DNA of 61,350 bases, counting the filler, from Hausera hauseri (taxonomy: Eukaryota), in the NCBI GenBank assembly GCA_046269625.1. It is 7 parts of 7 records of this genome, joined end to end, with 100 filler letters (N's around TTAATTAATTAA, not from the genome) between each part and the next. Parts side by side here need not be neighbours in the genome. Positions count along the whole stretch, not along the records: positions 46,546 to 52,790 come from JBJURY010120651.1; 6 more parts are not named here. One strand, given 5' to 3'. How positions within the stretch are numbered: the stretch's first letter is position 1; every line of letters starts with the position of its first letter. The position numbers and the translations under genes are program-made. The notes beneath the pieces were generated by a model. That model saw nothing but the letters and a program-made list of their open reading frames with translations. It ran no database searches and was not told the DNA's origin. Shown here piece by piece: positions 26,727 to 61,350 of the stretch.

Positions 26727-26732
26727 GATTTC

Positions 26733-26756
26733 GATGATGATGATGATGATGATGAT
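26733..26756 (+). repeat. (GAT)8 microsatellite
   Basis: Direct reading. Confidence 0.95.
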
Positions 26757-26829
26757 TTGTAATAATAACAATAATAGTTAGTTGTTTTGCTTGTGTTATA
26801 AACAAAAATGATCATGTACATTATAAGTA

Positions 26830-30950: not shown

Positions 30951-31069
30951 TGTCAGATTACGCCGTTAGTAGAGGAAAAATGAGAGTTCTGGCCCAAAAC
31001 CCTATAGCCCCCCTTGAAATTGATGCGTTTAAACAAAAATGCATTTCACGAATTGATATATCGGTACTT

Positions 31070-33600: not shown

Positions 33601-33628
33601 GATTGTGAACCCTGGAATCCAGTGGTTG

Positions 33629-34450: not shown

Positions 34451-34598
34451 GGACACATTATTGCAACTCGCCTTGTCGGTTCAAACGGTATAAAATTTCA
34501 TCTGCTATAATGTATTGTGACCATTTATTGAGTTTATTTACATTGCCAGATTTCATATCTTTTATTATGCGTGTTAATTCCGTATCTTTAAGCTGTTC

Positions 34599-35381: not shown

Positions 35382-35384
35382 GGA

Positions 35385-36179: not shown

Positions 36180-36731
36180 AGTCTTGCTAATCCTTCCATC
36201 GGTCTGGGTAACTGCTACTACGACTGGTGTCTTGCTTCTTTAGCCACCATCCTTGTCTAATTTCTTGTAATGCTTTGTCTCGGTGTTGTCGTTTCTCTGA
36301 CAGTTTCATGTTTGCGTTACTGACCTCTGGTTTCTGCGGTTTCTTTTGTACGTTAGAGGTAGTCTTATTAAATAAGCATGTTTCAAAAACTTCAATGTGT
36401 GGTTTTTCTGCTTTAGTGATAACACATCCTTTGTTAGAGTAATAGTTTTTCCTGTATGATTCATGATCATAACTAGAGCCTGTCTTTTACTATTCAACTG
36501 CACGAGACCACACACAGTCTGTAGTCCAGGTTCATTGACTACTTCATGTTCCGCCAACGGTATTATATGAACATTTTCTCCCTGCTGCCAATAGTCATTT
36601 CGTTTCATTTCTGCTATTACTATGTTTATTGAATTGGGTTTCATTACTATCTTGTTTTTAACTCTGATAATCGAGGCAATGTGTACCACATCTTCGAGAT
36701 CCACATATTCACTGTTTATCCGTATCTTCTT

Positions 36732-37100
36732 TTAGTCAAAATAGATACATGCTTGGTGTCGATTAAAAAAATCTCTCCCGATGATAGCACTACGACTCAT
36801 GTTTCTTACGACCAAGAAGTTATGTGTCATCACTGTATTTCCGATGATGAATAGTAGCTTTGTTTCTCCCAAAACGTTCAGTTGGTTTCCAGATTCTGAT
36901 CGCAAATCAACCGATTGTTTAACTAACGGCCCTGGTTTCTTGATCATTTTAAATACTCTTTCACTGATAATGCTGACCTGCGCTCCCGTGTCTACCAAAC
37001 ATCTAACTTTGATCTTTCCAAAGTAGACAATGCATGAGCTTGGATCAGTGATGTAATTGATCTCGACCATGTGTCTGCTATTCTCTTCTGTAAACTTCAT
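36732..37100 (-). pseudogene. Retropepsin aspartic protease
   Basis: CLVDTGAQVSII ... AIIGRDF. Confidence 0.92.
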
Positions 37101-37122
37101 GGACGACTGACAGTTTCAAACT

Positions 37123-38922
37123 TTAGGGAGTGGACGTTGTAATGGGTGTGGTGTTATGGTGTGAACTTCCGTCTCTAATCACTTTGACCTTTCTACTTTC
37201 ATCCACTTCCATGGGCCCATATTCCTGTTGATTTTCATATCTCATTGTCTTATTTCTGGGATCTGCTCTATTTGGTGTTGCAACTTCATTTCTCTCATAG
37301 TTTCTGTGCTTGTTGTCGTATTTGGTCTTCTTTGGATTAACCTCTTTCTTCTCTGGTTCTTTTTGTAAGTTGTATTTCATCTGCCTTTTTGTGTACATTT
37401 TCCAGCTGTCTGCAGCATACCGTCGCTCCACTGGCCTGTCTGGGTCGTAATTGTTCAAATTCCGTTTGATCATTGACCTTCTGTGGTGTGGTTCTGTATA
37501 TTCATGGTCTCTACCATATTCTTTATGTGATCTGCGTTTTGATGAATTCCTGTGGTAATTCTGATTCTTGTTTCTTACAATACGTGTGTGCGCTTTCCCC
37601 TTGTGTCTGCTCTTATCTGTGTCATATAATCTTCTTTGTGTGTCTTGACCGTTTTTCTCTGACTTCACTTGCTTTCTATGTAAAGGCTGTCATGTATTTT
37701 CATTTATGCCATGTGTAGCTTCCATTAGTTACCTGCTCCGCCGAAAGCTCCTTTCGAAGCAGGGTACTCATTTCCCTGCTTCTCCTGATTGCTCATCTCT
37801 CTTCGTACATTATTGTTGTGATTTCTACAAAATTTGGTGAAATGCCCTTCTTTCCCACATATGAAACATTTTCTGTCATTTTGAGCTGAATTTCTCGATA
37901 AGGTTTACTGTGGCATTCTTTGGCTATGTGTCCATCTTTTCCGCACCGGTAACATCTGGTGTGTTTCTCTACTTCATGAATCATGAGCCTATGTTCATGT
38001 CATCTGTCTCGGTAACGTTTATACTCGGTGTGTCTTCCACGCCATTTATATCTATAATGGTCAACATCCATTTGCTCTTCGTCACATTCTATGGACTTCT
38101 CTCTACCTAATCTTATGTTTATTCATTTGCTGAAGTTTTCTTCATCAACGGCTGTATGGATGGCAGCTTGGATCGTTTTCAGCTCTTCTTTCATCAATTT
38201 AATTTTGATCCGAGTGTTTCTCAAACCATCGATAAAAATCGGGATCAGCAGTTGCCAATTTTTTCCGATAGCACGTCTTGACCTGCGTAAGCTTCTTCAG
38301 CCATGTTCAAAACTTTGTCATCATATAACTGAACAGGAATGTCTTTTTCTTGTCGTATTTTCCTCAGAGCCACAATAGCATATTGCATGTCGCTCACCTC
38401 GGTGTAACATTTGGCGAGAGTCTTCTTAAAGGCATCCCATGTTTTCTTGGGATGGGTGAGAAATCTACGCCTGACAAAGTCGTTTGCTAGTCCATCGGTG
38501 GTCATATAGGCTAGCTCTTTTTTCTCATCTTCCGTTGCCTTTATCATATAACTATATTTCTCGACCTGAGAAATCCATGTCTTGAATTGTCTGGTTTCCC
38601 ATCCATTAAAGGGTTGCACGAATGTTCTAACATTTTGATGTCTGCTATTCAGGTTGACTTTAGTCACCATGGTCTCGATTTTGTCGAGGGCCTTTCTTAT
38701 GGGATCATCTCGTCCAGCACTTGATTTTGGTGGGTGAGGTTTCGCTTCCCTACTGGTAGACTGACTGCTCAGTTGTAAGCTTTCTACCAGTTTTCTCAAT
38801 TCTTCCTTCTCTATGCGCGTGTTACTAAGTTCGGCCATAATGGTGTCCAGTTGTGCTTGAGGCACCATCACCAGCCGTTCACCGCTTCCTTCCGCCATAT
38901 TTTCTATCAAACTTTCTTCCAA
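37123..38922 (-). pseudogene. gag: Gypsy gag with two CCHC zinc knuckles
   Basis: Capsid-like PFNG..FKTWISQVE; MDVD/PMEVD motifs; CYRCGKDGHIAKEC and (shifted frame) CFICGKEGHFTKFC. Confidence 0.88.
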
Positions 38923-39230
38923 ATTGTGTATAAACTTCAGTCAATTTTCTTGTATTTTCCCTTACTTAATGTCAGTTCTGAAACTTAGAATTTTCTCCAT
39001 TGCTAACCACAAATGTTCAGTACATATACAGTCTAGTTAACCTTAGTACACATACAGTTTGGTTTTCGTTTGTAACACGTCTTTACACAATCTTGTCTAC
39101 ATATAGTATACTAAATAATATCAATATAATTACACCGATCTATGCTAATTCTCCAGTTAGATGTCTCTCTTAGACACTTTAGGTTGCTTTTCAGTGCTAT
39201 GCATCCTGTAGTCTGGCGTCGGTGACCGTA

Positions 39231-39245
39231 GTCTCACCGGCACCA
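39231..39245 (-). promoter_or_regulatory. Candidate primer-binding site TGGTGCCGGTGAGAC
   Basis: TGG-initiated, ~300 nt upstream of gag; only 8 nt match the tRNA-His/Phe-type TGGTGCCG; no canonical CA LTR end directly before it. Confidence 0.45.
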
Positions 39246-39633
39246 AATAAACTATATATAATAGTTATTCGCTACACTGCCATTGTGCTCTCACTGGCAC
39301 TATGAAACTATGATCTGAGACAACTACACCTACTGCTCAGCCGTGTAGCTACTGTGATACATCATTGGAGCGCAGTGATCTAATATAGTGTTAGCATTTG
39401 TTAGTCAATTGACGGTGTTTATCAAATGCCCCCAGAGTTCGTGTATTCACAGTGACAAGCCATAACAACACAATGAAAGTTAACATCGTAACACAACAGT
39501 CAAATCGTGCAACTAAGCCTTGGCATGAACTCTATACACTGGAGAATGCCATCGTTTAATAAAATCAACTTTATTAAACGTTAATTGGAACAAGCATATT
39601 AACACTATATATAGGACTTTTAACTTCAACATG
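39246..39633 (-). repeat. Probable partial 5' LTR
   Basis: Minus-strand TATATA (~39606-39613) followed by AATAAA (39570-39575) upstream of the candidate PBS; partner LTR not in the contig. Confidence 0.5.
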
Positions 39634-39733: not shown

Positions 39734-40578
39734 TACTCCACCGACCAAAATCGGTTCGGTGACATTCACGTAAATGTACATTTGACTTAGTCCAGTTTTC
39801 AGTTTGGGTTCAAGTGTTGCTGCCGCCTTCGTATTCGATGCCTCAAACCGCTGTTTTTCAAAACCCAATACCATGGCCAAAGCTTTATCTAAGGATATGT
39901 TAACAATATCCTTAGCCAGTTCAAATTTAATATACCCATTTGCATCTGACTCGAAAACTTTAAATATCGCTTTGTACTTTTGATTTGAAGAAAAGTGTTG
40001 ACAGAGTTGTGCTACAGATTCACAATAGACATTGTCCCCAATCGATGCGTATGATATTGATACCATTTCTGCTGTATAGGTAAATTTCACCGTTGTCTGG
40101 TAATATAAGGGACTTAATTTTATACCAACTACATATTCACTTTTAATGTGTTGACCTTTGTACTCAGTATTTTTGAATCCAAATTTCTGCACCATCTCAA
40201 AAGACGGAAAGATAACAGTGAATTTAAAATCTGATATAAAATGTAAGTTTTAATCTAAAATAAAAACACCAATTTGCCGTGTGAACCGTAATTTGCTTCG
40301 GTCGTGCAAATGGCCGATTTCTCAACTGTTATTTTATTGTTGGTAAGTGTCAGAGGACAAGAATGCGTTTTGGTTTCAGTAACAGTCTTGTTGTATGTTA
40401 TTTTTATACTACCTTTCAATGTCAACGGTGCGTAGGGAAAGTTAAATTCCGCCAGTGCAACCTCCCATTTTCCAGATAAATCCAAAGGATTGTTTCAGTC
40501 TACAGCGTATTCACTGGGGGAATTGTTCGGACGAGTCGTCGGACAACTGTTGCTCGGCAACATCATGTAAATACTCAT
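39734..40578 (-). pseudogene. Penton-like minor capsid protein 2 (cut by gap)
   Basis: MSIYMMLPSNS...NNPLDLSGKWEVALAEFNFP ... QMYIYVNVTEPILVGG. Confidence 0.82.
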
Positions 40579-40632
40579 GATCTCGATGAAGGAGATTATG
40601 ATGATTATGATAGTGATGACGCAGTTTGTTTA

Positions 40633-41686
40633 TTATCTACGACGAAAATGCAGCATCAAATGTGTCTTGGCTCCGAACAGAAATTTAATGGGTTTTGAAA
40701 ATTCGTATGCTATATACACGGAAATACTGTGCACAACATTGTGAGATAACGATAAATACATGGGCAGGATGATATTTACGTAAGCAGTTTTGCCAGGTGT
40801 TTTGTACTTGTCCGAATCCAGTCCAATAGAAGCCAATAGTTGTTTACGGTCTCCGCCAACATATACGGGTTTGGTTAGATCAGTTAAAATATCGATTCAA
40901 TGAAATGCTTCATAGAGACGTGGTTTGTGTTTAGCAACAATCGGCCGTCCGCCGCCACTGGTTTAACCAAATTCTTGTTTCTTAAAACCCAGATTCTGTG
41001 CCAATAGTTCATCACAGGTAAAATATGTAACATTATTATGCAGTGTAAACAAAATACGACCATTACAGTTTAATTCATATGTCTTGAGATCCAATTTAGA
41101 TACAATCCTGATGGTTGACACAATTCTGTTTCCCTTTCCGTAAGAAAACCAATTCCTGTTGTATGAGAGTAAAAGAATGATTCAGTCTTTTGCCCGTTTA
41201 CTGTAATATCGGTGGTTTTCGCAGTGGAAAAATTCAATTTTTCACTAATTATACTCTGTCCACCGAGCTGTAGACCTTTCGAGCGTACATAGGCAGATGA
41301 TTGAAAACCCTATGCTTGAGCGTCGACTAGTGTTTGAAATAGCAATTCAATCGGATGTTTGTGTTTTAGAACCAATCGGTTGTTTAAATGAAGAATATAA
41401 ACCGGGAAATATTGACGTTGGTAATTGCGAACGTGAAATGTTCCATTAGAGTCTCTGACTAACTGCAAATGACTAGATACAGGAGATTGTCTTACTAGAG
41501 TATAGTATATTCCACTGTTATCACGCATTGTTATTGGTGAAAATGTAAACAAGAATTCCGCCAAAGCCACTTCCTGGCTCCCTGGCGTAAGTCGAGCGGC
41601 TGGTCCAACGCCATGGTAAACCGATCAGCCGTATTGTTGTTGTCATGTTCCTATAATCTGTTTCTATAAAATATCAAATAAGTGCT
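40633..41686 (-). pseudogene. Penton-like minor capsid protein 1
   Basis: NNTADRFTMALDQPLDL..EVALAEF; TDLTKPVYVGGDRKQLLASI; C-terminal HLMLHFRRR. Confidence 0.82.
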
Positions 41687-41688
41687 CG

Positions 41689-42700
41689 TCACTCAATCTG
41701 CGATGCAAATATCCAACTCGGTGTAGTGTATCCGTGCCACTTGACGAGATATTGTTTATTCCAACCTTTTCCACGTGAACGTAGAATTTCATGAATACAA
41801 TACACATCAGGTTTTTCCGGTAGTACTTGCAGTTCCTGTTCGTAGAATTTACCACGTATTTCCTCACCGTTTTCATCCTCTAAAACGTACATGACACGTG
41901 TTTGTTTTGTGTTAATTGCTGAAATGCGGAAAACCTCGTTGCTCCAGTTCTGATTGAAATTTTTAATGAATGGCGTCGTAATTATTTTCGAAATACGTAT
42001 GTAAGCACCGATTTTATATTTTTGGCGTTTAATTGCCTGTCGTTGTGTTCGGTTTTGATAAAGCCACGTGTCAAAATCATCGATTACGTCAATCGGCTGT
42101 AATCCATTGATGCCACGATGTGTCGAATGATTGTATGCATGAATAATATCCGGCAATACATATACCCAGCGTTTGTTGCCTTGCTTCGTAAAGAATTTGT
42201 TTAGGCGACCGCGCAATGTTCGATTAAATCGTTCACCGAGTGCAGCCTTGTATTGCGAAAACATCGAGAAGTGGTTTACACCGAACCGCCTCAAAACCTA
42301 TGCGACATTGGATTTGTAAAATTCTTTACCAAAATCCGTTTGTACATGTATCGGCGGCTGTTGTTCAATTAACCTTTGAACAGCGTCGGCAATCTCTACC
42401 GCATTTAGATTTCACAGCAATTGCACGTGCAAAACGACTAAACACATCAATACATATCAGCACATTGATGCTGGCGTACGGAATCATTTCCATTAGATCC
42501 ACTTGCCATACGTAATTTACACCGGCAGCACGGTATGCACGAATTGGAAACCACCTTCTTATCGGTTTGTTTAGGCTGTATGCTAACTGTTTCCCCAGCC
42601 AACATAGGGTCTGTTGCCGAGTCTGTTTGACAGTCTGCCAGTTTGTCGATGCCAGTATATCCGATTTGATGACGCGGATCGAACCACACGTCGCCCATCG
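41689..42700 (-). pseudogene. Polinton retroviral-like (rve) integrase with C-terminal chromodomain-like segment
   Basis: WFDP..IGYTGIDKL; WQVDLMEM; CIDVFSRF; QTDFGKEF; ERFNRTL; YNHSTH; QNWSNEVF; GKFYEQELQ; YLVKWHGY; frameshifted. Confidence 0.92.
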
Positions 42701-42842
42701 TTGTCGCTGATGATGTCGTTTTTGTTTGCATTGCAGCAAATAGAACGAAATGTTAATAAAAGATTCGGTAAAGTGGGATAAAATGGTGAAAACCATGCAC
42801 CCATATCGCTACATCATCATATACATACCGTCATTGTTTATA

Positions 42843-43166
42843 CTAAACTTTACCACCAATAAGTCCACCCAGTAATGACGTGACAATCGGTAGAATTGCA
42901 CAAAGGAATCGGCCATCTTGCTGATACATGACCTCTCGTTTCAATTGTTTACTACGAGCGTTGGCAAGACCAATGAGTCATTTTCGATACTTCAGTAAAT
43001 TCCGCTTTCCCGTACCAATATCAACGTGACCCATAACGATATTGTACAAAATTTCCATCAAATCGTCTACTACAAATTGCGAAAATGATCGTAGCATGTT
43101 TCTCTTATGTCTCGTAAGTGCCTTGAGCAAAGCAATAAAGTACGGCTGACTACGTTTGAATCGCAT
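42843..43166 (-). pseudogene. Small basic Polinton protein with amphipathic C-terminal peptide (one internal stop)
   Basis: Reading through TGA at 42978 gives LIGLANARSKQLKREVMYQQDGRFLCAILPIVTSLLGGLIGGKV*. Confidence 0.7.
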
Positions 43167-43399
43167 TTTTGGACGTATTGATGCTGAGACGTAGATGTTT
43201 ATAACCGTTGCAACTGTGACGGTTATTTGCGTCTAGTTGCTGCTGTTTTTGTTCGAAGCACAGAAATGATTAATCGTTTGACTGTAGCGGTTCATTTTGA
43301 TACACGTTTCTTGCAGGACACACGCTTGGTAGGTTTACGTTTAACAATTGCTTTTCGGAAATTCTTCATTTTATCACAATCATGTCGTCGATTTTCGAA

Positions 43400-43725
43400 T
43401 TTGTTTAATGAAAATAACCGTAAACAACGGTGTCGTGCAATCTTCGTGAACAGTTGTTGAAGTCCAATTGTTTCGCGACTTCCTGAAATAAATCGTCAAT
43501 GACAATAACATCATTTTTCAGTAATCGTTCAGACCAGTTCGCATCAAACTCATCTGCTACTGTCAGGCCGGACTCTCCATCATCACCACTGTCCTGATGC
43601 CAGTAAATGTGACTGAACAGCGGCGATTGGAATGTCATGGTAGGTCTGCAGCAATTTGCAAAGTGCGTTTTGCCGCTTCCACTGGGGCCTACAATTTGGA
43701 AAATAGCACTATTCTGCAGCTTCAT
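43400..43725 (-). pseudogene. FtsK/A32-like DNA packaging ATPase, truncated
   Basis: Walker A IVGPSGSGKT, Walker B VIVIDDL, then LFTKIARHR in a shifted frame. Confidence 0.85.
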
Positions 43726-43802
43726 TTCGTTGATGATGCATTTCTCATACATTTTGTTTATAATCACACACACAGATAGGTGCAGCACGAACAGTTTCAA
43801 TC

Positions 43803-44261
43803 ATGATAGTCAATATCAACTATCGCGGACGTTACTGAGTGTATTAATGCACTGCCGTTAAGTCAATGCAAGCCGAGTCAGTATGTCCACAAATGTCCGC
43901 CGGATATTACATGCATCATATTTCCATCGGGTGTGTCGTATTATGGTTTGTCACAAACCAATCTCAAATTGTAGACAACTACCATTCGGAATTATCATTG
44001 ACCAAATTCAATCAATAACGGTAGCGGCTCAATTAGATTGCTCACCACCACCACCATCAATTAATCTGCACAAATTAGCAATGGCTACAGAATGTATTTA
44101 TGAGCCCGAACTGTATCCTACACTGCAACTAACACTATTACTCCCGCTTTGTCTATATGTTTAGCAGTGGAAAAATTGTCGTATTGGGGATTCTGTCAAT
44201 CAACTATGAGACGACTATTAATCAAATTAAACATCACAAATGTTTTACTGAATCAAACTAA
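43803..44261 (+). pseudogene. TATA-binding-protein-like gene
   Basis: Stitched frames: MIVNINYRG...CIIFPSG-CRIMVC...INLHKLA...YEPELYP...VYMFSSGKIVVLG; matches TBP repeat signatures (IFxSGK; YEPExFP). Confidence 0.75.
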
Positions 44262-44658
44262 TATACTATGGCTAATGGACTACAAATATCATTCTCATTC
44301 GTTCGGACATTACTACGATGGAAAACGACGATAAAACGATAAAATGATTCTGCTCAACAATAATACATCTGACAATGACGAAAGCACAGATTGGTCATGG
44401 CTGTTTGGTGACAAGAATGTCAATGTCAACTGTCTTGAACCAAAACCTGTCAAATAATTAGTAAAACCGGTATTAAAATGGCAAGGGAGAATTATTGGCG
44501 GTAATCGCATGTCAGACGAAGAGAGCCGTAATACTCAATGGTGATGATGAGTTCCGATGTCACGAGTGCTTGGTTACAACAATTCTAATAACTGTTTGGA
44601 ACCAAAAATAGAACCTCTCGAATAATTAGAAAAGCATAAATTAAAATGACAAGCGTGA

Positions 44659-45099
44659 ATGACTAATGGAATACAGAAACGAAAATTAAAACCCACGAAT
44701 CAAACACGGACATTTTTACCGACACGACGTTTTCGAAAGTATGAAATGCATTATCTGCAATCGCCCGTACAGATTTCATTGAATGATCCGGTGTTGTTGA
44801 TCACACCCAAGTACAGTTATCGTGTAAAGCAGCTACTGAGTAAAAATGTTGCGAAACTTGGTGATTCTTTAACTCAATTAAATATGGACTTAAAGTTGAA
44901 CGAAACGGCCTTACAACGGCAATATGTCGTTTTACCGGCGCAGAAAATGAAACTGTTTGATTTTAGCGGTCGTGAAATGCCTAATGTACCCGATGATTTA
45001 AAGTGTCGACTCAACATTGAATTAGAGGGATACAAAGAAAAAGACGGTATCAAAAGCCCGATTTGGCGTTTATCCGAAGCACGTTTTGATTATCAATAA
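44659..45099 (+). CDS. Polinton-associated hypothetical protein (146 aa), homologous to 27572-28003
   Basis: Intact ORF; AATAAA overlaps stop; shared motifs with 27572 ORF. Confidence 0.7.
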   Translation: MTNGIQKRKLKPTNQTRTFLPTRRFRKYEMHYLQSPVQISLNDPVLLITPKYSYRVKQLLSKNVAKLGDSLTQLNMDLKLNETALQRQYVVLPAQKMKLFDFSGREMPNVPDDLKCRLNIELEGYKEKDGIKSPIWRLSEARFDYQ

Positions 45100-45152
45100 A
45101 TATTGTTGTTTTAATTTTCTTCTTCAACAATGAGTATAAATATACACGTGTA

Positions 45153-45638
45153 ATGGGCTTTTCATTAATAATGATAATGAATGATGTAAAGATTATTTTG
45201 ACGGATGAAAGTGCTACTGCACCGAGATGTGTTACGACAAGTGCGGGCTACGATGTGTTTTCCAATGTCAATACGACAATTCCGGATAGCACAATCAAAT
45301 GCATAACAACTGGGATTCGATTGGCGATTCTACTCGGTTACAACGGCCAACTTTTATTGAAAAGCGAACTAGCAAAGCTCGGACTGACGGTTATTGGCGG
45401 CGTCATTGATTCAGACTTTCGTGGTGAAATTAAGGTGTTGCTGGAAAACCAATCCGGGGAACCGTATGCTTTTTCGAAGGGCAGTGCAATCGCACAAATC
45501 GTTTTTCTTCGCTGTGAAGAGGCGGGATTCAGTGTAATGTCACCGAAACAATGGGGATTGTTTTGCGTTAATGAATTGACACGAAATGAACGCAAAGAAT
45601 TCGGCTTTGGTGATGCGGACAAAACCACCTATGTTTAA
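45153..45638 (+). CDS. dut: Trimeric dUTPase (true start likely 45171 or 45177)
   Basis: Motifs AGYD, (LKSEL), GVIDSDFRGEI, IAQIVF, R...GFG; TATAAATA at 45135. Confidence 0.9.
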   Translation: MGFSLIMIMNDVKIILTDESATAPRCVTTSAGYDVFSNVNTTIPDSTIKCITTGIRLAILLGYNGQLLLKSELAKLGLTVIGGVIDSDFRGEIKVLLENQSGEPYAFSKGSAIAQIVFLRCEEAGFSVMSPKQWGLFCVNELTRNERKEFGFGDADKTTYV

Positions 45639-45712
45639 TGATTGAGATGATATTAATAATAGTTAGTTGTTTTGTTTGTGTTATAAAAAAATGATTTTGT
45701 ACATGATAAGTA

Positions 45713-46206
45713 ATGGCGACAGGATTTAGAGATATTGAAGCTTTCCAAGATGATAATGCCCGGTACATAATAAAGAAATTATGCATTATGGTCGTCAGTA
45801 ACATTTTCAAACCGCTTGTGTACGTATTCAAGCCCTCCGTTATGTGGAATCAATTGACAGAAAAGGCAAAAATTACCAATGGATATCTTATGGACTTTAT
45901 GGACTTTATTGGAACGAAGACAGTTCAACGTTTTGCGTATCATGTATCATGCGAGGCATTTGTGATCGTTTTGACATTGAAAATACAATATTTTACATTA
46001 AAAACCAAATTGACGGACAAAAATTTACACAACTCCATTCACAGCTTCCCGCGTTGCGAATGACGACGTATTCAACAACAACATCGAACAGCTCGCTGGC
46101 GATGGTACTTAACAATATTATATGTCGATATCGTGATCATGGACCGAATTGTACTTACAGAAAATGTCTACGGCTTTTATTGACTATATTTCATGCTAAT
46201 AAATAA
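45713..46206 (+). pseudogene. Polinton accessory DnaQ/DEDD-like gene (copy 2, frameshifted)
   Basis: MATGFRDIEAF..YIIKKLCI; YGLYW; CRYRDHGPNCTYRKCLRL; DNA similar to 26830-27312. Confidence 0.6.
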
Positions 46207-46445
46207 ATAAATGTATTTCGCTGTTTCGTTTTTTGTTTCCGTAAATAAGGTACACCGTATTGGTTAGTTGAATAATTTAAAAACTATAAATACGGGTAGG
46301 AAATAATATTAAGTATCATCATCATGGGAATAGTTAATCAACTGAAGCAATTGCAAAATTTTGGTGCATTATCAATTTCAGACTTGGTACAATAGTGGCA
46401 AGTATTTGATAGTGAGCTGGTTGCGCGAGCGCCAGGTGATTTTGG

Positions 46446-46545: not shown

Positions 46546-47110
46546 GTAGAACAATTTCGAGACGTCATGCGAAAGATCGAAAAACTTCGTGAAGTGGACA
46601 ACGAGGAAGGACTATATGCAGTAGAGTCGCGACCATATAAAGAGCGAGGTACAGAAAGGACACATCAGAGTAAGAATTTTGGACAGAGTCATGCACCGCT
46701 GTCTTACGCAAGTGTGGTCCAACAAAAAGCGCATAACGTATATGGTTGGAACAACAAACGAGCAACAAGATGACAGCCGGCTGAGAAACAGAAACCACAA
46801 ATCAGGTTCCAAAAACAGAATGCTGGCATTGCCACATAGAAGGACATATCAGAAGAGACTGCCCAATAATAAACAAAACAAAGGGCATAGGCAGACTTTG
46901 CTACGCATGCCACGAAGAAGGCCACATTCGGAAAGACAGCCCATATGTAAAATGCCTGCACTGCAGAAGGAACGGGCACCTGGGATCGCAGTGCTACCAG
47001 AGACGCCGTGAACAACGAGAATACACGACGAATGCGATCTATCGCGATGTGCAATACGATGAATATACCGACTTCTTCAGACCCACGAAAGAGTCGATCG
47101 TTAAACGATA
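46546..47110 (+). pseudogene. gag: gag C-terminus with three CCHC-type knuckles
   Basis: CWHCHIEGHIRRDC, CYACHEEGHIRKDS (last C lost), CLHCRRNGHLGSQC. Confidence 0.85.
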
Positions 47111-47212
47111 TCCACGGCCACTTAGTGTTTCGTCGTACGACTGTACATCCGATAATGAAACGAACCTATCGGGAAACGACCGTACTCCCCTGTCAAGAAA
47201 GACAGAGGGAGC

Positions 47213-48230
47213 ATGCTAAGTAACTCAGTTATTGAACCTTATCTACAAAGTGGGTTTTGGCAAATCCCAATGGCCGAAGAAGACCGATGGAAAACCGCAT
47301 TCAAGACTCACACCGGAGTCTACCAATTCACTCGTATGCCATTCAATTTAAAAACAACACCCATATTTTTCAAAAATTTATTCGCCTGGTGTTAAAGGGA
47401 GTACGAGGTTTATCATACATTGGTGACATTCTCATCGCATTCAAGACATGGTCTGAGTATTTAATAGAATTAAGAAAAGGGTTTGATCAAATTAGACTTG
47501 CGAAATTAAAGTTAAATCCGAAAAAAATGTGAATGCGCAAGAAGGATGTTAAATATCTAGGATTTGTTGTTTCAAACCAAGGAATTTCGACCAGTCCTGA
47601 TTTAATATCCCAAATATTAGAATATCGCCACCAATAAATGTGCACGAAATGAAGACTTGGTTAGGTCTGGGAGAATTTTATCCCACGTTTATACCTGACT
47701 TTGCAGAAATTAACCAGCCTTAATATAAGCTCCTAAGAAAGGATCAAAAATGGGAATGGACAGAAGAGAATCAAAACGCATTTGACGAGATTAAAAAAGG
47801 AATGGTATCAGCACCTATATAGAGATACCCAGATTTTTCATTACCATTCATTCTGAAAACCGATGTTAGCATAAAAGCTATTAGTTATATATTAGCCCAG
47901 CAAAATCCAGAAGAAACAACTGAGCACGTAATCGCCTACAGAGGACGTAGCTTAAATAATGCACAACGAAAATACTCAACCACTGAATTGGAGTTACTTG
48001 CCATTCGAGATGGATTGCGACATTACGAGTATTACGTTTATGGTCATAAAATCATGATATTTACTGATCATAAAACACTCTTATCTCTACGCTCCGACAA
48101 TAGACGTGTATCAAGTCGAATCCAAAGGTGGAAGTTGGAACTTTTGAATTATGATTTTGAATATCGATACCGTCCTTGAAAAGAAAACATAGACGCCTAT
48201 GCACTTTCGAGAATGCCTTACAAAAAATAG
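47213..48230 (+). pseudogene. RT and RNase H (protease and part of RT N-terminus deleted)
   Basis: MLSNSVIEP fused directly to LQSGFWQI; RMPFNL; YIGDILI; KYLGF; KTDVS; YSTTELELLAI; FTDHK. Confidence 0.9.
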
Positions 48231-48499
48231 TAGCTGCAGTTTATAAACCATTAGATAATGAGAAGGATAAACAACTGAATGAAAAAATTATTAATGATAT
48301 GTTGCAAGAAAAACGTCAAATCCAAGTACGAAATATCGAGACCTTACAAAACCAAGATCCCTTTATTTTTCTAATCAAACAATTAATCAACGGACAATTA
48401 CTTGACTCAATATCAAGTCACATTCAAAAGTTTTATGAAAAAAAAAACAAGAAAATATTGAAATCGAAAATGGCATTTTACGACTAAGAGTCGGAGAAA

Positions 48500-49570
48500 G
48501 AAAATTGATCCTTGTACCACATCAGCCATTAAGGCTGTCATGCTACAAAACACGATTAACACCTGGCTGGACATCCATCTTTAAACAAGACTTTGAAGCG
48601 TATAACCTCAAAATATTACTGGCCTCAAATGAATAAACACATCGATGGATGGGTACGTTCATGTAAAATATGTGCTACAAGAAAAGATAGAGGATTTCGT
48701 GCAAAACCGTTTTAGGAAGCTTACCCGAAGCACGGAAACCAATGGAATTGTGCTCAATGGATATCTCCGGACCCCTCCCAACTTCAGACTAAGGATACAA
48801 ATATATACTTTCATTTGTTGACTACTTTTCTCGTTTTATTGTGTTGGTACCATTAAAAAACATGACAAGTAGTACAGATGCTAAAGCCTTTTTTATGAAA
48901 TTCTTACTGTAGTAGGCACCACGAAACAGTTGTTAACTGACCATGCACCATACTTCATTAGAGACTTCTTCGAAAAGTTGTCAAAAATATTCTAGTGCAA
49001 ACATTTGTTAACGACATCATATCATCCACAATGTAATGTTATGATCGAAATAATGAATCGTACCATTCAGGGCATCCTTTCTACAAAGGTAGCAAATGAT
49101 CAAAAGGATTGACATAACCATTTGAAAACTACGGCCTTTTCAATTATTACCACGCCCACCAAGAGTATCAATAATTCACTTTTTGAGTTAATGTTCAGAC
49201 GATTACCTTTACTACCATTAGATACGAAATTACTACCATCATTCTTGTTAACCAGTGACCACATGGATGATCAATACCAGATTTTGTTAAAACGACTCGA
49301 CTATTTTTAATGAGAAGCAAAACAGTGTGAAGAAAAATACAAAGCCGGATATAAGAAACAATTTAACAAAAAGGCACGACCACATATTTTTAAGATTGGA
49401 GAGTATATAATGGTTCACTACCCTGCGATGAAGAAAGGCAAATAGTTAAAATTAACACGCACAGGTCAAGGACCGTACAAAATTGTTGATGTGAGCCCAC
49501 AAATACTTTTTATTCAGAAAGGACTTGATAAATATGAAACTGTATCTGTTCAACGAGTAACCCGAGCACC
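48500..49570 (+). pseudogene. Gypsy integrase with GPY/F module
   Basis: AGHP, YYWPQM, CKIC, SMDISGPLP, VDYFSRF, LTDH, YHPQCN..IE, GPYKI. Confidence 0.9.
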
Positions 49571-49591
49571 TACATCATATAACGACTTCAT

Positions 49592-51182
49592 ATGCGAAGC
49601 AGAGCTAGAATCACCAAAGATAGAGAGTTCAAAGTAGCAGCAATGTGCAAAATTCACTCGATGAATACCTCAGAACATTACCATGTTTACTTCATCCTGA
49701 GACGATACTTGGCTATCTTTTTCCTCATTTTTCTAGCATTCGTAATACCTATTACGGCTACAAATACCCATACATCAACTATATCACTTACTCAATTGAT
49801 TGAACGCGTTACTATTATCAATATTGAAACACATAAACCTAGTATTTGCCTTAGAACTCACTTGTCTGTAATAATGCGCCATAAAGTTTATTTTGTCTTT
49901 ACATCACAGTATAATCTCTCCATAGTTTGCACAATTCTTGAAACACGTATTAAAACCTGCTGTTTAGTCAATTACGTAATGACTATACACACTAAGTAAT
50001 ATTGAAGGCAAACAGTGCCAACATCACCATGTGGAAACCAAATATAATTCTACACATCCCTGCTTATAATGAGATGAACATATTGAAAACTTCTGATGTC
50101 TTTTTGCGTAATCCTTTTATTGTCCGATTTCTAGAACACAATATTGAAATTTCTAGTATCGATATCACAACACAACCTCCCTGTATATATTTTCGCACCA
50201 CACATTTATTACCCTACAAATTCGAAATCAGCATATGGCTCGAGCCAATCCCTACTCCCATAACACAACCTCATTATTGTTACCTTAAGAGAAATAACAC
50301 TCGTTCATGTTGTACACCCTATCCGTACATATGGTACCGAATTCGTTTAGATGCATACCAAACGCGAGAAAATAGACAATCAATTAGAGTGTATTGTCAC
50401 CGCATTCCTATTTTATTTTCAGTTAAACCAAACATACTCATTCTAGCTTTTGCCAAACAGCACTTTACGTCTCCGCAATCTGTGAAACAGATGATAACAC
50501 CGAGATTAAGGATCACACCCACGGTTAAAGGTAGGGGAGATCAAAATCAAAGTCCCACATTAAAACCACAATTTCAGCTCAAACTACAAAACCAGATTAA
50601 AATACAAGTTCAACGGCCATATACACTGAAACAGAAATTGCATAAACATATATTTTATGGAAAATGGATGAACGAATTTCCTATCAAATTCAAATTAACG
50701 CCCTATATGGACCGCATTGAGATAATATTTCAAAATATAATAAATGAACGAAACGTTGTGGTAACATGTACCGGTTCTCATGAAAGGTTACTATCAAATA
50801 CGAGGCAAATAAAAGAAACTTTTGTGAAAAACTAACGCCAGATACCAATTATTTGGTGAGTATAGGGATCTTAGATAACTCAAAAATTGTGGCTATAAAA
50901 AGACAACCAGCAGTAAATCATTATCGCCACATAAGGTATAATGACGACGACGAAAAATGGAAATTAACTGCTGCTTCGACAAGAACTACCGAAACATATA
51001 TTCTACAATTTTGGTGGATATTCGTATTAATAGCAGGTGCCGGTATAATTATTATGATGTCTATTGCATTGGGCAATAAACCTAGGTGTAAAAAGAAAAT
51101 ACATTACGAATCACACTACTCTATAATTAGAGGCAATCAACCTTGCCTACAATTGAGTAAAATTGAGGAACAAGAGAAATAG
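49592..51182 (+). pseudogene. Putative env-like type I membrane glycoprotein split into three ORFs (49592-49999, 50002-50835, 50853-51182)
   Basis: N-terminal hydrophobic segment YLAIFFLIFLAFVIPITA; sequons NLS/NIT/NNT/NQS; Cys residues; C-terminal TM FWWIFVLIAGAGIIIMMSIALG followed by KPRCKKK; located directly after integrase. Confidence 0.55.
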
Positions 51183-51321
51183 AAAACGTACAGTTGCAAA
51201 CACGATAACAAGTAGTGAAGAGAATATTAATGAAACGACACGTACTACGTTTTGTCTTGTGCCTATCTTGATCTTTAGACTAGTTAATAAAGAATTTTGT
51301 AGCTAACTCAAAGAGAATCTG

Positions 51322-51576
51322 ATGAATTACATACTCGTGTCAAGCATAATGCTCGGACCAATTATGTTCGTTTATACAGTTTATAAATTAATAGCCAATG
51401 AGATGATAATCAAAAATCTTGGAAATTTGATTAGTTGGCTTATCACATTAGACTTAAAAGAACATAAATACGATGTGCAACATCAACAAGACGAAAAAAA
51501 ACATGGAAAAAAATTTTGTGGTCAAGCTCCACAATTCGGAAGCACCCAAACAACAAACTTAGCTTCAAAAGTTTAA
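51322..51576 (+). CDS. Small ORF with N-terminal hydrophobic helix (possibly N-terminus of the next ORF)
   Basis: MNYILVSSIMLGPIMFVYTVYKLI. Confidence 0.35.
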   Translation: MNYILVSSIMLGPIMFVYTVYKLIANEMIIKNLGNLISWLITLDLKEHKYDVQHQQDEKKHGKKFCGQAPQFGSTQTTNLASKV

Positions 51577-51669
51577 AGAATAGATGGTTTCAAGCGACCA
51601 AATGCGGTTACAACAAAAGATGAGTGGGAGGATAACGGAATACAGAAACTTAGTACAGCCAGAAAGAAT

Positions 51670-52482
51670 ATGAAATATTCCTTCTATGACAAATTATTAG
51701 AACATTTGGATGGTTCAGAAGATCGCATCAGTGAAGTTACCAGAATACCCAATGGACTTAAATACGGGGAGCAACGAAATCGAGAGATACTGCCTTTCAA
51801 GATATTTAATTCTGAGACTACATTTAGACTTCCTCAGTGGACTTCAAATAACTTAGGTATAACCATTCATATTGCCGTAGGAAAAGTCATGGCAGTATTT
51901 AGAAAAATTAAAGAAAGAAAAAACGGATTAGAAATAATAACAGGTCAGGAATCCTGCCAAATCAATTACCCAGTGGATCCAACACGTACTCGACTTATAG
52001 CCAAAGAAATATTGAATATCGGAATGATTGAAATCTTCAGAGCCGAAAAGGAACTTCCAGTATTACTACCTTTGAGATACAAAGTTGAACCGGCGGAAAG
52101 GGAGATGTTGGAAGAACCAAACATTTTATACACTAATAAATCAAATAGTACTCGATGTGGCCGATCTTTCGCTTACAGACACAAATCCAATGGATCGCAA
52201 GTTCCACTTCCAATTGAAATAATTATTGCTGAAAGATACGGAGAAATCATATTCAACCAGATAATAGCTCCTAGAAGAACCACTCATAACCTAAGTAACA
52301 TAAAACATGGAATAACTTGGGATAAAATTGAGAATAGCAAGGATTCTCGAGTGGTTCAGAATGAAACTCAGAAATATATCCTAGGATATAAAATAGTGAT
52401 ATTGCAGGCCCACAAAACTTTTAAGGCTTTGTGCATCCCAGTAAACAAGGCCTCCACAATCTTTGACCCATTAAAAATGTGA
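51670..52482 (+). CDS. Accessory ORF with C-terminal REX4/ISG20-like (DEDDh) exonuclease-fold domain, catalytic residues apparently lost
   Basis: IIIAERYGEIIFNQIIAP...HGITWDKIENSKDSRVVQNETQKYILGYKIV...KTFKALCI parallels the REX4-family pattern VSIVN..GEV.YD.YVKP...SGIT...L..A..F..VQ.EV..LL.G.ILVGH...DL.AL. Confidence 0.6.
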   Translation: MKYSFYDKLLEHLDGSEDRISEVTRIPNGLKYGEQRNREILPFKIFNSETTFRLPQWTSNNLGITIHIAVGKVMAVFRKIKERKNGLEIITGQESCQINYPVDPTRTRLIAKEILNIGMIEIFRAEKELPVLLPLRYKVEPAEREMLEEPNILYTNKSNSTRCGRSFAYRHKSNGSQVPLPIEIIIAERYGEIIFNQIIAPRRTTHNLSNIKHGITWDKIENSKDSRVVQNETQKYILGYKIVILQAHKTFKALCIPVNKASTIFDPLKM

Positions 52483-52616
52483 AAATACTATGGACAATAC
52501 AATTAAAACGTTAAGTAAGTTGATAGAGTTTTCAAAAATTACTAGATTTCCCAGTACCACCAGAGGACGATTACAGCTTAGTAGTGTAAATATGGCGGTT
52601 CTACACCACTCCGGGG

Positions 52617-52790
52617 TGTGGTAATCGATAAATCGTTTTTGCACATGTGCCGCCAGGTACCGTTGCTAGGCGCATTTTTGCACTTTTCACAAATCAACCG
52701 CTGCATACTGCATTATTGATCGAATCGATCGGGACAAAGTGCTAATCGATAGTACACATCAGTGCACATCGACTTATGCTCAGTTCAGGT
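52617..52790 (+). repeat. Possible start of 3' LTR
   Basis: TGTGGT after a short GGGG tract where coding-like sequence ends; no partner LTR available. Confidence 0.3.
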
Positions 52791-52890: not shown

Positions 52891-53250
52891 AGCAATGTGA
52901 ATTACATCAGTTTGGGTCGGAATGCGGATTTCGTTGAGACATACAAGCAGGATTTCGAGACCGGTGACAATGTTTGTACATATATGCAATCTATCGTGCG
53001 CAACATGGGTTTGCTAAACAAAAATATCAACAATGGCGTATCAATGGATTTGATCTAGTGCACCTATCCATTCTTCACCTTTGTCCTGGCTCCGGATTAT
53101 GACGTTGAACAGACTCAATTACTTCAACAGGGAAACTTGAGACTGGAGGTTCACTTTGCTAAAGCGTTGGAGCAATCTACCGTGATGCACATTTACGGTG
53201 TATTTGATGCCGAGGTTGAGGTAACGAAAAACAGAACCGTCATTGTATAA
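52891..53250 (+). pseudogene. Polinton major capsid (hexon-like) C-terminal 120 codons; absent from ORF track
   Basis: Single frame: NVNYISL...YKQDFE...NNGVS..*..FFTFVLAPD...QQGNLRLEVHFAKAL...IYGVFDAEVEVTKNRTVIV*, with AATAAA at the stop. Confidence 0.85.
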
Positions 53251-53327
53251 ATAAAATCCGCTGCGTTTCACCTTTTCTTCGTCTTCATTGTACTACGAAG
53301 TAATCTATTTCGATAACTACTACTATT

Positions 53328-53704
53328 ATGCTTAATTCACATTTTACATTTAGCTCCACTGAGCTTAGTCACTAAGAAAAACTGCTCTTGGGCGCGAAAT
53401 TTCGTGACATGTTTTCACTTGAGTGTGTGCCGCGTGATTTACGATAAACTGGTGGATTTATTGTCAATATACAAACTTCATCTTTGCCGGGAGAACATTG
53501 GATTGCTGTGTACGTCCATCCGACAATCGTCAGAGTATTCAATCCGCTCGGATTTTACTATCCATCATCGTTAGCTTCTCAAACTGAAAGGCAGTCATTA
53601 TCTCCATACAGCGTTGAATATAATAGACTTCATTATCAACATCAATGATTATACTATGTGGACAATACTGCTTATTGTGCCTTACATTACAATCACTTTT
53701 GTAA
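53328..53704 (+). pseudogene. Adenain-like (peptidase C5-type) cysteine protease; absent from ORF track
   Basis: FRDMFS...FIVNIQTSSLPGEHWIAV...VFNPLG...YN...Q...CGQYC; His and Cys present, Asp position is Asn; several stops. Confidence 0.85.
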
Positions 53705-54329
53705 AAAACGTTTTATGAAATATACTTTATTTTGTTGCTGTTGCTGATGCTTTTGGTTTGTGTGTGTAATGAAATTCCGTTACGAAAATCGATTATCGGT
53801 TTTAAGCAAAAAACATAAAACTTGAAATGTGACATTTTACAATTATCATGATGATAATGATTTTCAACGACGATTTTCAACACCTTACAATCGTCTGATC
53901 GTGAGGCGGCTATAATATGAAATGCTCAACCATCGATGGGCTACGTGCTCAAACCATTTCCACCACCGCCTGACGTCTGCAAGGGGAAATTTTGCCCATT
54001 TGAAATTTCCCCATCGATTTTTCCCCATGTTCCCATGGTCAAACAACGTTGCAACCGTGTCCATTCCAATCGCCAATATCGATTTACCATTGTACACATT
54101 TTCTGAGTGCTAGCAACATGTTTCCCGTTATACGTGACACATTTCCCATTTTGCTTCTTCCTCTTCTAGCGCCTCTCCCTTACATTTAGGTATACCCCAC
54201 CTATATTAACTTTTGCCCACCTCGTCACGCGCTATTGATATCACTTGGGCCAGTCCATTACTCGATCTCCTTTTCGGCCATGAGGGAGGAATAGACAAGC
54301 AGGTTGATAAAAGTGGTTTTCCGACCAAT

Positions 54330-54600
54330 CACAGAAGTAATATTGCTGTTGATAGAACACTAGAAGTGACTGATTGTTGTTGAGAAATGCACGGTTTCAC
54401 GAAATTAAGATTTCTGTTTGTTACCAGGCTTGGACGACCGGAATGTTGTTTCCTATTCAGGTTTCCATTCATTTTATACATGTTATGCAACACATGATTT
54501 CGAAATGCCCACTTTAGTAGCAATTTTTCTTATGGATAAGCAATCCTTAAAATATGCTTGAATTACGCCTATTGATTCTCTATTTGACAAATTCGCGTAT
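54330..54600 (-). pseudogene. Tc1/IS630-like transposase N-terminal HTH remnant
   Basis: LSIRKIATKVGISKSCV then GNLNRKQHSGRPSLVT (GRPR-like). Confidence 0.65.
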
Positions 54601-55089
54601 TTAGAAAAATAAATTCGAAAATTAAAATTAAAATTGATTTTGCATAAAGACGTAATTTAAACATAAAATCCAAAGTTCAAAGTTTCGTTCACGTGACACA
54701 TTAAAACTCGCAGAGAAATACATCTATTCTATGTTTCGATTTGACACGGTTGGAGAGTTATCCATAATTTTTGTTCCACGAAGGAAACTGCATTATGTAC
54801 AACTCCTTCGAAGTCTCATTTCGTCATCAGATTTTGACATGGTTGTATTCTATGGAGCATGCGAGACATTCCATCTCGATACAAATTCATTCCTATACCT
54901 GTTGAACATGACGGTTATTACGAAAACATCTTTATACAGAAGATAAAAAAGAATATCATACGAATAAACTACTCTGTTCTGTTTTTATTCTATGCATTTT
55001 TTATTTTATATTTCAATAATGATACTTATTAAAACCTATGAACGTACCTTTTCTGATGATATCTCAAGTTCACATAACCTTATCTACAT

Positions 55090-55870
55090 TAGGGTTTCTT
55101 CCCAGGAACGCTTTCCCGGTCAATCCCGGGATTTTTTTACAAATTACCGATCCCGAATCCCGATGCTATTTTCCCGAAAAATTGCGAATTGTTAATAAAT
55201 TGATATATCTATTTTAAAATGTTTTAAAACAATGAGAATAACGATGAAAATGTTTTAATTTTCCTAAACTACTTAAACAAGCATATCTAAATCGTTGCTG
55301 AAAGGCTTTGTATAAAGAGTTCACTACAGGAGAATGTTCAAAAACTTTGGAGGAGACAGGTTCCGAGGAAATAGATTTGAAAGTAGAATTAAATAAATCC
55401 ATTTTATAATCAACATTAACTTGTAACACTACATCAATGGATAAAATAGCGTGCTCAATAAAAAGAAATGACCTTATATAAATCTAGTCACATACTGACT
55501 ACGAATTTAAAATATGTATTAAATGCTCTAATGACGATGAAACCAAAATCAATTGAAAACGAAAGATATTTTTCAACCTCAAGAATATTTGTTTCTAAAT
55601 TAAGACCACAACTATCTGATCAATAATTGATGCTTTGTTTTAAAAATTTGTCTTTTTGAATTTATTTTGTGGATTTTGAACTTTAAACGTGACCAGTAAT
55701 CGATGAATACGAAACATTTTAAATTTTAAACATTGAAATAGAATGTTTATGTGAACCTTTAATTCAAACTTTTAAACATCAAAAAATGAAGACACGAAAT
55801 CTCGGTATTCAATCGATCCTGTTCCCGATTCCCCAGACTGTTGCAAAAACCCGAGAATTGGGAAACCCTA
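55090..55870. mobile_element. Non-autonomous hAT-type DNA transposon, 781 bp
   Basis: TIR TAGGGTTTC...GAAACCCTA; exact 8-bp TSD ATCTACAT at 55082-55089 and 55871-55878; subterminal CCCG repeats at both ends. Confidence 0.88.
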
Positions 55871-56979
55871 ATCTACATTAATATTAACAAAATAGTAATA
55901 TCAGAATAAAAATTATTGAAAATGACAACACAAAATATTTAAAGTTCATGTTGATTATATATTTAAAGTTAAATAATATAAATAAACAAGAAAATCAATC
56001 TCTACTATAACAAACATTGTAATATAGTTCAAAAACGGAATATATTAGAATTAAGAGTTACTATCCTTAAACTTTTTCGCAGCTATGCATAGAACAGTAA
56101 CATCTTACCGTGAATAAAAAATGTAAATTAGTTTGCTCTTAACTAGAAATGTATCAATTCTCGATTATAACTCATGTGATATCGGCATTCTTGCACAAGT
56201 GTTTCCTGACTATGGTACTTAAAAATACACAAATTTGGAATGTTCCGATTGAATAAAATAATGAACAGATCAAGGTTAACAACTTCACTTTTGGAAAGTA
56301 TTAATATAGAGCTTCGTATAAGAATAAATGTTACCTTATGGTATACAACGTGAAACGTTTGATTGTCTCCTTTATAAGCGTCGCTCATTTGAACCACGGA
56401 CTCAAGAAATGAAATTAACGGATGGGCCAACGTAATCATATTCTCTGTCTGGGTTAAATCATCTGTACATTCTGAGAGATAGTTCTGTAAATCTGCTTTC
56501 TCTTCCGGACTGTATCTCGGTATAAATTTAACACAAAATGTATGACCTTTTACTTAACGTTTTCCTTCAACCGTTCTCCGACTTCCTGAATTATTTTTAT
56601 TAGGTTCTCTTTCCAAACATCCATATGCATTCGCTCTCTATTCAGCTGAATAAGCATGATGTACAGTTCATCGTTCTATTAGAACAGTAATGATTTATCT
56701 TCAATAAAAATAGTTCAACTGTTTTTCCAATCAAATCGGTTGCTGCTATACTCCATCTTTTCGTCTTATCCGTAATGGGATATTTCTTTTTTAACTGTTC
56801 CAGTGGGATTGTTTCCTAAAATTAAATATAATGTTTTTAAGCATTTTTGTCTGGAATAATATTGCATACAAAGGCCGTGTACAGTAAGATATTGTACATC
56901 CCATAATTTAATTCCATAACGTTTAAAACGATCTTTTCTAATTTGTTTAACAAGACCAATGGGTAGTTGTGCTGAAAGT

Positions 56980-59499: not shown

Positions 59500-60787
59500 G
59501 CCTGCGTGATAATCCGTCCGCATTTCTATTGCTCTTTCCAGCTCGATAAAATATAGTCAAATATATGCTTGCAATTTAAGTTGCCACCGTTTTAGTCTTG
59601 AGTATGGGTCTTTCACTGTTGACAAACCCAGTGATGCGTGGTCTGTAAAAACTTTCACTTCGTTCTCCTATACATAATATCGGAGCTTATCCATTTCAAA
59701 GACAATAGCCAACATCTCCTTTTCTATTACGGCACATTTTTGTTAGGCTTCTGACAATGTTCTGCTTGCATAAGCAATTACCAATTCCTATTTGGTATTT
59801 GGCGGCATCTGTGATAATACAGCTCCCACTCCTGTGTTACTTGCGTCAGTAAATATAATGAACGGCAGCAATAAATCCAGGTACCTGAGTATTGGTGCTG
59901 ACGACAACAATTTTTTTAGTGTCAAACGATTCGTGAGTTTCCATCATTCATAAGAATTTAGTTTCTTCGAGCGTTAGCTCAAACAATGAGACTGCTGTTG
60001 TACTGAAATTTGGAATGTGCTTTCTGTAATAACCACAGATACTTTCTCTGGATTCACTTCTACGCCTTTAGCAGAAACATTATGTCCAAGGAAAACTACT
60101 TTCAATATGGCAAATGCACACTTATGTTTCGGCTTGATTCCCCATACTTACAACAAGTCAAGAATTCTTTCGATATCATCTAAATGTTCATCCAGTGTCT
60201 GCCAAAATATCACAATATCATCGATTTAAACTTGCGTGCGTACAGTCTATCAACATAGCCTCTAAGGCTTCTTAGAACGTAGAAGGTGCATTGCATAATT
60301 CAATGGGCATTACATTGAACTCATTATAACCTTTACCAGCGGAAAATGCTGTCTTATATTTGTCTTCCTCGTCTAGTGGGACTTGCCAGTACGCACTATG
60401 CATATCAATCGTCATAAAACATTTTGAGCCTCTTAACTTATCAAATGTGTCTTCCTGCGGGTATGAATTCTTTACTGTTTGACTATTTAACTGTTGAAAA
60501 TCCACACAAATTCTGGCTCCACCAACCTTTTTCACTGTTACTACAATTGACGATAGCCACGAAGAATTGCTTTTTCTAATGACATCATTTTCCAACATCT
60601 GTTGCAACTGACGAGTGACTTCTTGCAACACATATGGAACACGATGCGGTCGTTGTTTTACCGGTCGTTCATTTAGCAAAGGAATGTGATGGACTATGCG
60701 ATCCGTTTCACCAAGATCTATGTCGGACTTAGCAAAAATCTTTAGGTGCTTCCTAAGAACACACAGTAGAAGTATTTTGTCTTCCAA
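59500..60787 (-). pseudogene. Gypsy RT and RNase H
   Basis: RICVDF, IDMHSAYWQV, FNVMP..LCNAPSTF, IDDIVIF, FLGH, FTDASNTGVGAVL, FTDH, NADGLSR. Confidence 0.93.
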
Positions 60788-61350
60788 TTAGATCAGTTTT
60801 TACATTACCCGCATCTTCAAACGTACGGACACATTCCTCAGACTCGGTGATGTGCCATATTGCACATAGTTGCCCAATAGTTGCATTTGGTCTGGGTACA
60901 ACTGCTTGTCTATCGGTATTCACTACTCGAACTGGTAAGTAACTTTCATTGATGGGACTAATACTGCATGCAGCTTTTATTCCATGCCGGTTATTTAATA
61001 CAACATCAGTTTCAAATAGCAAAGTTCCATTTACTACGTTTGGTGCATAGATTTGTATTATGTGCTCACTGGTAGGTTCCAAAATGATTCCTTCCTGTAT
61101 GATAACTACTTTTTTTCGAAACTTTATGGATGGTATCCAAGCTGTCCTGTAGCTAGGTTTAATATCGTCCTGAGCGTCTACGTTGTAAATCAAGTCCCAC
61201 AATTACATCCTCGACCAGTTTGTCAAATACTTTGAATGTATGCCTCAAGCGTTTGTTATAAAGAATAATCTGAGTCGTCCAATAACCTACCTGCATTGAT
61301 CTGCCGCCCCAACCGCATACGTCGCTTAGTCCTCTTTCCTGGGTGGTTCC

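Follow-up and report, generated by a model that had tools for sequence, protein, structure and literature searches.

Organisation of the Gypsy element

The accessory open reading frame (ORF) described here belongs to a decayed multi-copy Gypsy element of Hausera hauseri (GCA_046269625.1), located at positions 46546–52790 (JBJURY010120651.1) of the window, namely, the 61,350-nucleotide stretch of DNA that was analysed, composed of seven pieces joined by N spacers. Since these pieces are separate, only positions 46546–52790 are relevant to this ORF. The piece starts within gag and, on the plus strand like all of its features, displays the Ty3/Gypsy order, with gag CCHC knuckles followed by reverse transcriptase (RT), RNase H, and integrase, as recognised by Pfam and homology-bearing frames. 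The C-terminal part of gag, harbouring three CCHC zinc knuckles, spans 46785–47219 (zf-CCHC in three stretches, E 3.6e-06), and the broken C-terminal part of RT, traced by translations and by a blastp comparison of three frames with related pieces of pol, spans 47204–47820; the protease and the N-terminal part of RT were not seen in this copy. RNase H (47823–48179; RT_RNaseH, E 1.8e-30) precedes an integrase (48560–49640), whose zinc-binding, core, and C-terminal parts carry stops and frameshifts (Integrase_H2C2, E 2.9e-16, and homology frames). A broken membrane-protein ORF occupies the env position (49583–51182), and the accessory ORF, starting at 51322, lies between it and a high-copy LTR-like terminal repeat (52617–52790), which begins with TG after a short G run and is truncated by the end of the piece. 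The Gypsy context put forward in the preliminary description is borne out.

With regard to an enclosing LTR pair, the piece contains only the 3' high-copy repeat, its 5' end lying within gag. Single differences involve 125–128 contigs in the terminal repeat versus 1–18 in the accessory ORF. Judged by differences and loose ends, the repeat is matched by most of 7,913 contigs, and it may stem from solo LTRs present in abundance or from a derived repeat that is non-autonomous; in both candidate frames, the end of the accessory ORF runs into the beginning of this repeat. Over the gag part (46546–47250), contig depth, which we did not take as copy number, is far above that of pol, with loose ends at 47243, as if gag-only derivatives exist.

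Other copies were read from the contigs of one public run, which is perhaps the source of the window itself and so non-independent. These contigs cover the stretch in 30 of 30 bins and diverge by 8–17% over the accessory ORF, identifying the family as multi-copy. Within this run, no intact copy and no contig joining pol to the accessory ORF were found, none of the contigs listed spans the whole stretch, and 51510–51613, including the stop at 51574, is covered by a near-identical copy only. The differences between copies considered below are 40 of 393, chosen by the tool, many of them likely private to this decayed copy. Indels separating the other copies from this one were used to infer the reading frame of the family; in pol, they correctly chain the homology-bearing frames from RNase H to the zinc-binding part of integrase, as well as within RT and within integrase, and we therefore consider that they mark the frame of the family elsewhere.

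The membrane-protein ORF bears a hydrophobic segment at 49706 (hydropathy 2.42) and a transmembrane (TM) segment at 51018 (2.57), followed by a short basic tail; the TM-bearing ORF reported upstream of the accessory ORF is therefore present. The ORFs previously regarded as separate env and TM genes resemble the remains of a single type-I membrane protein, and its three broken pieces match no fusogen in Pfam or NCBIfam, nor, for two of them, in the PDB. The proposed gag-pol-env-TM-nuclease layout holds for the order of gag and pol, the TM ORF, and the position of the last ORF; its likeness to a complex retrovirus becomes an analogy, since env and TM seem to be one broken protein devoid of a fusion-protein match. 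In six other-copy contigs, integrase seems to read into the membrane ORF in one frame. The ectodomain is beta-rich and, by eye only, FN3-like; an FN3 profile seeded with a motif seen in the query itself gave 7.3 bits versus 5.4 for the best shuffle. In appearance, the protein is closer to a receptor-type protein carrying FN3-like repeats than to a fusogen, the FN3 appearance being a lead only, and we found no paper on an FN3 ORF in LTR elements in the open-access literature searched. A ribonucleotide-reductase identity offered by NCBIfam was rejected, the matches reaching 15 bits against cut-offs near 480.

The other pieces of the window are repetitive or mobile-element-like. Positions 1–25502 form a tandem array of 25 kb, in which copies about 75–80% alike recur with a period of 48 bases. 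A second Gypsy element, on the minus strand (31170–39633), carries extra ORFs beyond integrase (33036–33578 and 32229–32792, coiled-coil-like) and, before RT, a domain devoid of family assignment (36306–36731), a similar one being present at 60753–61202 in a third element. The pieces at 25603–31069, 39734–46445, and 52891–56979 appear, by eye, Polinton/Maverick-like (polymerase fragments, integrase with a chromo-like end, ATPase), and the second of them includes a dUTPase at 45090–45638 (Pfam E 7.5e-21). Judged by the neighbouring Gypsy and Polinton-type pieces, the host is probably an animal.

The accessory ORF and its resemblance to REX4/ISG20

The accessory ORF consists of an open frame of 301 codons (51577–52482), preceded in the same frame by 51322–51573, from which a single stop at 51574 separates it. 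We infer that 51322–52630 was once one gene, comprising a mildly hydrophobic N-terminus (hydropathy 1.69 within 51322–51573), a middle domain, and a pseudo-nuclease. The middle domain (51577–52110) has no family match, and a dUTPase-like character suspected by eye was unsupported. The differences listed between copies show a third-position excess in the N-terminal part (51322–51573), and over 51322–52110, 9 of 17 are synonymous versus 26% expected (P 0.018), which argues that the accessory ORF was once under selection. The nuclease-like part comprises a putative ExoI region (52145–52175), where this copy shows a short, compensated frame break, a domain core (52210–52479), and a broken C-terminal part (52480–52633).

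The preliminary description had recognised a C-terminal DEDDh pattern of the REX4/ISG20 type, and all of the peptides that it quoted are present; GEIIFNQIIAP, HGIT, VVQNETQKYILGYKIV, and FKAL lie in the open frame 51577–52482 and align in order with a REX4-like profile. This profile was built from 120 listed members of 1,514 REX4-like relatives, from which the query was excluded, but the members had been ranked by an alignment containing it. The domain (52210–52470) scores 13.9 bits, a value far too weak for significance in a general database, versus 8.6 for the best of 5,000 shuffles (4,678 of which were given a score), and ranks first among the 2,464 stop-free pieces of the window; its reversed sequence gives −1.2 bits. 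Over about 90 residues, beginning at the second strand and ending shortly after ExoII, the alignment remains colinear, and the unbroken main frame from 52096 reaches 13.0 bits alone. An hhalign comparison gave E 0.003 over 79 columns, and the identity to REX4-like proteins is about 20–25%. The pattern is accordingly present, though weakly.

In the ESM Atlas, the top set for residues 170–301 consists of eukaryotic RNase_T clusters, at 0.91 and in 20 of 30 matches, a level to be read against shuffled proteins, which attain 0.9 in 4–10 of 100 cases; the shared features number 153 versus 170 usual for true family members. A single-sequence AlphaFold model had a pLDDT of 31.7. When fed with the REX4 alignment, the model reached 64.4 and retrieved ISG20 first (Z 6.2, rmsd 2.9, 94 aligned residues; best Foldseek E 0.024), a match that is circular because of the alignment supplied. 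Three intact REX4-like genes were taken from viral contigs (three of five pattern matches), and a profile of these had ISG20L2 and ISG20 as its first matches among PDB entries. As an observation in its own right, intact DEDDh exonucleases of the REX4/ISG20-like kind, which have many close relatives, are encoded by these viral contigs, two of which are long and one of which bears the label of a giant-virus assembly.

General searches returned no relative of the accessory ORF or its domain in Pfam (RNase_T included), NCBIfam, or PDB sequences, nor in a set of 5.8 billion proteins queried with both (proteins up to 527 residues); the lone match in a set of 1.84 billion, to a repetitive protein, was judged spurious. 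Viral and metagenome contigs yielded no relative of the ORF, phages gave only two matches (E 2 and 6), 26 metagenome Gypsy loci found via RNase H held no match to the accessory ORFs, and Rfam was blank; by these searches, no relative was found in another species. Taken from sequence comparison, homology of the domain to REX4/ISG20-type DEDDh proteins is nevertheless, in our estimation, highly probable.

Status of the catalytic positions

Motif windows were ranked over the 6,154 positions of the piece by HMM emissions, since a position-specific matrix built on the narrow set of REX4 proteins proved overly strict for this purpose. For ExoII, the aligned window ranks third and lies in unbroken frame; a Thr (52417) replaces the Asp, and the Gly-His-x-x-x-Asn-Asp motif is wholly changed, its Gly-His pair being gone. 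For ExoI, the main frame of this copy is free of Asp and Glu from 52117 to 52213. When the register is chosen to agree with the spacing in ISG20 (25 residues to the conserved Gly here, 24 in ISG20), Ser and Ala occupy the positions of the catalytic Asp and Glu. Relative to Asp/Glu/Asp codons, the three catalytic codons in this register differ by six base changes at nine sites, an outcome whose chance is 6e-5 if copies diverge by 10% and 1e-3 if they diverge by 17%, so that the residue loss is likely older than the decay of this copy. None of the 40 differences listed (of 393) restores a catalytic position.

An IVLDVAD strand in an alternative frame had been proposed for ExoI. It does occur in the next frame, starting at 52145, and with 4.1 bits gives the best match to ExoI locally, ranking sixth of 6,154, but it is not confirmed as the true first strand, and its D-V-A places an Ala at the Glu position as well. 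The ExoI region is covered by one other-copy contig only, in which IVLDVAD is not restored to frame: this contig differs within the strand by small indels that together preserve the frame, and the first residues of IVLDVAD are therefore non-coding in that copy.

With regard to ExoIII, the IKTLSKL...LSSVNMA continuation that had been noted is present in a stop-free frame (52484–52621), where the helix preceding ExoIII gives 5.8 bits (rank 16); as a degenerate ExoIII it is surpassed by the third frame, the ExoIII helix scoring 0.9 bits (rank 59 of 6,154) versus 6.7 bits (rank 3) at 52560–52604, and the His and Asp of ExoIII are not in place. The third frame, to which four other-copy contigs point and which has four stops in this copy, provides an Asp (52569) and no His, while a His on the ExoIII side occurs in the main frame after three stops. 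When read through entirely, the main frame scores 16.9 bits with five further stops, versus 13.8 and 12.8 for the other two, and in none of the three does the profile alignment extend to ExoIII.

In this copy, three metal-binding positions out of four are thus devoid of acidic residues, in agreement with the catalytic alteration first suspected, and the fourth, the Asp of ExoIII, may survive. Judged by its sequence, the gene would not be counted among active REX4/ISG20 enzymes, the D-x-E of ExoI and the Asp of ExoII being absent; a pseudo-nuclease is likely, since ExoI lacks Asp and Glu in the main frame and the Asp of ExoII is a Thr.

A putative pseudo-nuclease and its known counterparts

We propose that the Gypsy element captured a REX4/ISG20-type DEDDh exonuclease gene, from which the C-terminal domain of its last gene would descend, and that the product has been kept as a non-cutting pseudo-nuclease that binds and shields element RNA, a proposal whose chances we regard as even. 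A non-cutting RNA-binding protein is predicted because at most one of the four metal-binding positions retains an acidic residue. By analogy with the dead DEDD folds discussed below, the domain might grip RNA 3' ends or structured RNA, and the bound protein would protect the transcripts of the element from 3'-5' nucleases and small-RNA processing of the host, perhaps at a membrane where particles are assembled. The anti-silencing or RNA-processing role raised in the preliminary description is thereby a putative one. If this were true, the accessory ORF would become a candidate counter-silencing factor encoded by an animal element, and few such factors are known.

It is possible, though rather unlikely, that the captured nuclease gene has become inactive and persists as a passenger free of selection, the N-terminal part alone mattering, or having mattered, to the element. 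Among the listed differences, those of the nuclease part are non-synonymous in 9 of 10 cases and those of the N-terminal half in 8 of 17 (Fisher P 0.04); the former show no sign of selection on the domain, as if it were unselected, but they are drawn from the 40 chosen by the tool, many likely private to this dead copy. The low identity to REX4-like proteins and the lack of relatives from other species in the sets searched would also suit a passenger, as would the ORF3s of rotifer elements, for which the available text of PMC5408684 indicates no clear departure from neutrality. However, the structural motifs keep their order and spacing over about 90 residues although the catalytic residues are gone, and copies 8–17% apart still have the region.

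An active DEDDh 3'-5' exonuclease encoded by the family, which would trim the ends of element RNA or cDNA or clear dsRNA and be damaged in this copy only, seems improbable. The heavy decay of this copy, the acidic cluster accompanying the good ExoIII helix of the third frame, the Asp that IVLDVAD supplies at a plausible place, and the catalytic residues retained by known element-borne DEDD ORFs (PMC5408684, in the part available) speak for it; yet it needs the six base changes at the catalytic codons and is at odds with the wholly changed ExoII in unbroken frame, the Ala of IVLDVAD, and the missing His of the third frame. A resemblance due to chance, or limited to a generic RNase H-like beta/alpha segment, is the least probable reading, for although general searches were blank, the score is only 13.9 bits, and the profile members, ranked by a query-containing alignment, are Lys/Glu/Ile-rich like the query, two methods of different kind (ESM Atlas and the 120-member profile) concur, the motifs are colinear, and composition-keeping shuffles and the reversed sequence fail.

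The retained, RNA-binding pseudo-nuclease could also be combined with the other features of the element into a single joint reading, which we consider doubtful as a whole. It would describe an invertebrate Gypsy lineage with four genes: gag; pol, reading into an FN3-like receptor-type membrane protein that is not a fusogen; and a last, membrane-anchored gene, which would overlap the 3' LTR as retroviral accessory genes do and in which a captured host ISG20/REX4 antiviral-type nuclease would have been turned into a dead RNA-binding decoy against silencing by the host. DEDD nucleases have been acquired by retrotransposons repeatedly.

Compared with ISG20, ISG20L2, and REX4 (PDB 1wlj and 7yw5), the accessory domain shares an ordered motif match of about 90 residues and differs by the absence of the ExoI Asp/Glu and the ExoII Asp, by a His that was not found, and by its identity of only about 20–25% to the REX4-like set. 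Exuperantia and the PXL domain of PML are dead DEDD folds that bind RNA, according to the accessible part of PMC13659232; they have the DEDD fold without its acidic residues, as predicted for the accessory domain, and may serve as a model for the putative action of the accessory protein. However, they are cellular genes in which, from the same partial source, a SAM-like subdomain aids RNA binding, and none was seen in the accessory ORF. KolobokD elements carry a DEDDh exonuclease aboard an invertebrate mobile element (PMC9587614, available portion), but these are DNA transposons, and their nuclease, which resembles Exuperantia, TREX, and ERI1 rather than REX4, is proposed to be active on DNA.

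Within the literature searched, outside of which lay subscription journals, Repbase, and supplements, an ORF of the ISG20/REX4 type or a dead DEDDh one was not found in print for any LTR element; PMC13524379, on envelope-carrying Gypsy elements, mentions neither exonuclease nor fibronectin by a search for these terms. A DEDD ORF3 as cargo is already known from rotifers, the dead DEDDh version being the one not found in print. In the bdelloid rotifers, the Juno and Vesta LTR retrotransposons and Athena elements encode a DEDDy ORF3 with intact invariant residues, for which roles in RNA 3'-end processing or silencing have been proposed (PMC5408684, accessible text); these ORFs are noted again in the parts available of PMC5718144 and PMC6338049. 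In both cases, a DnaQ-like nuclease ORF, here a putative one, follows pol in an element of the Gypsy type, the membrane ORF intervening here. If our reading is true, a second nuclease class, DEDDh, would occupy the same slot without its catalytic residues, and this would argue for RNA binding, not cutting, as the selected property. From what is accessible on them, the rotifer ORF3s are RNase D-like DEDDy proteins with intact residues and with neither TM nor coiled-coil segments, whereas the accessory ORF is nearest to REX4/ISG20-type DEDDh proteins, lacks catalytic residues, and is distinguished by a long N-terminal extension and a separate membrane ORF upstream.
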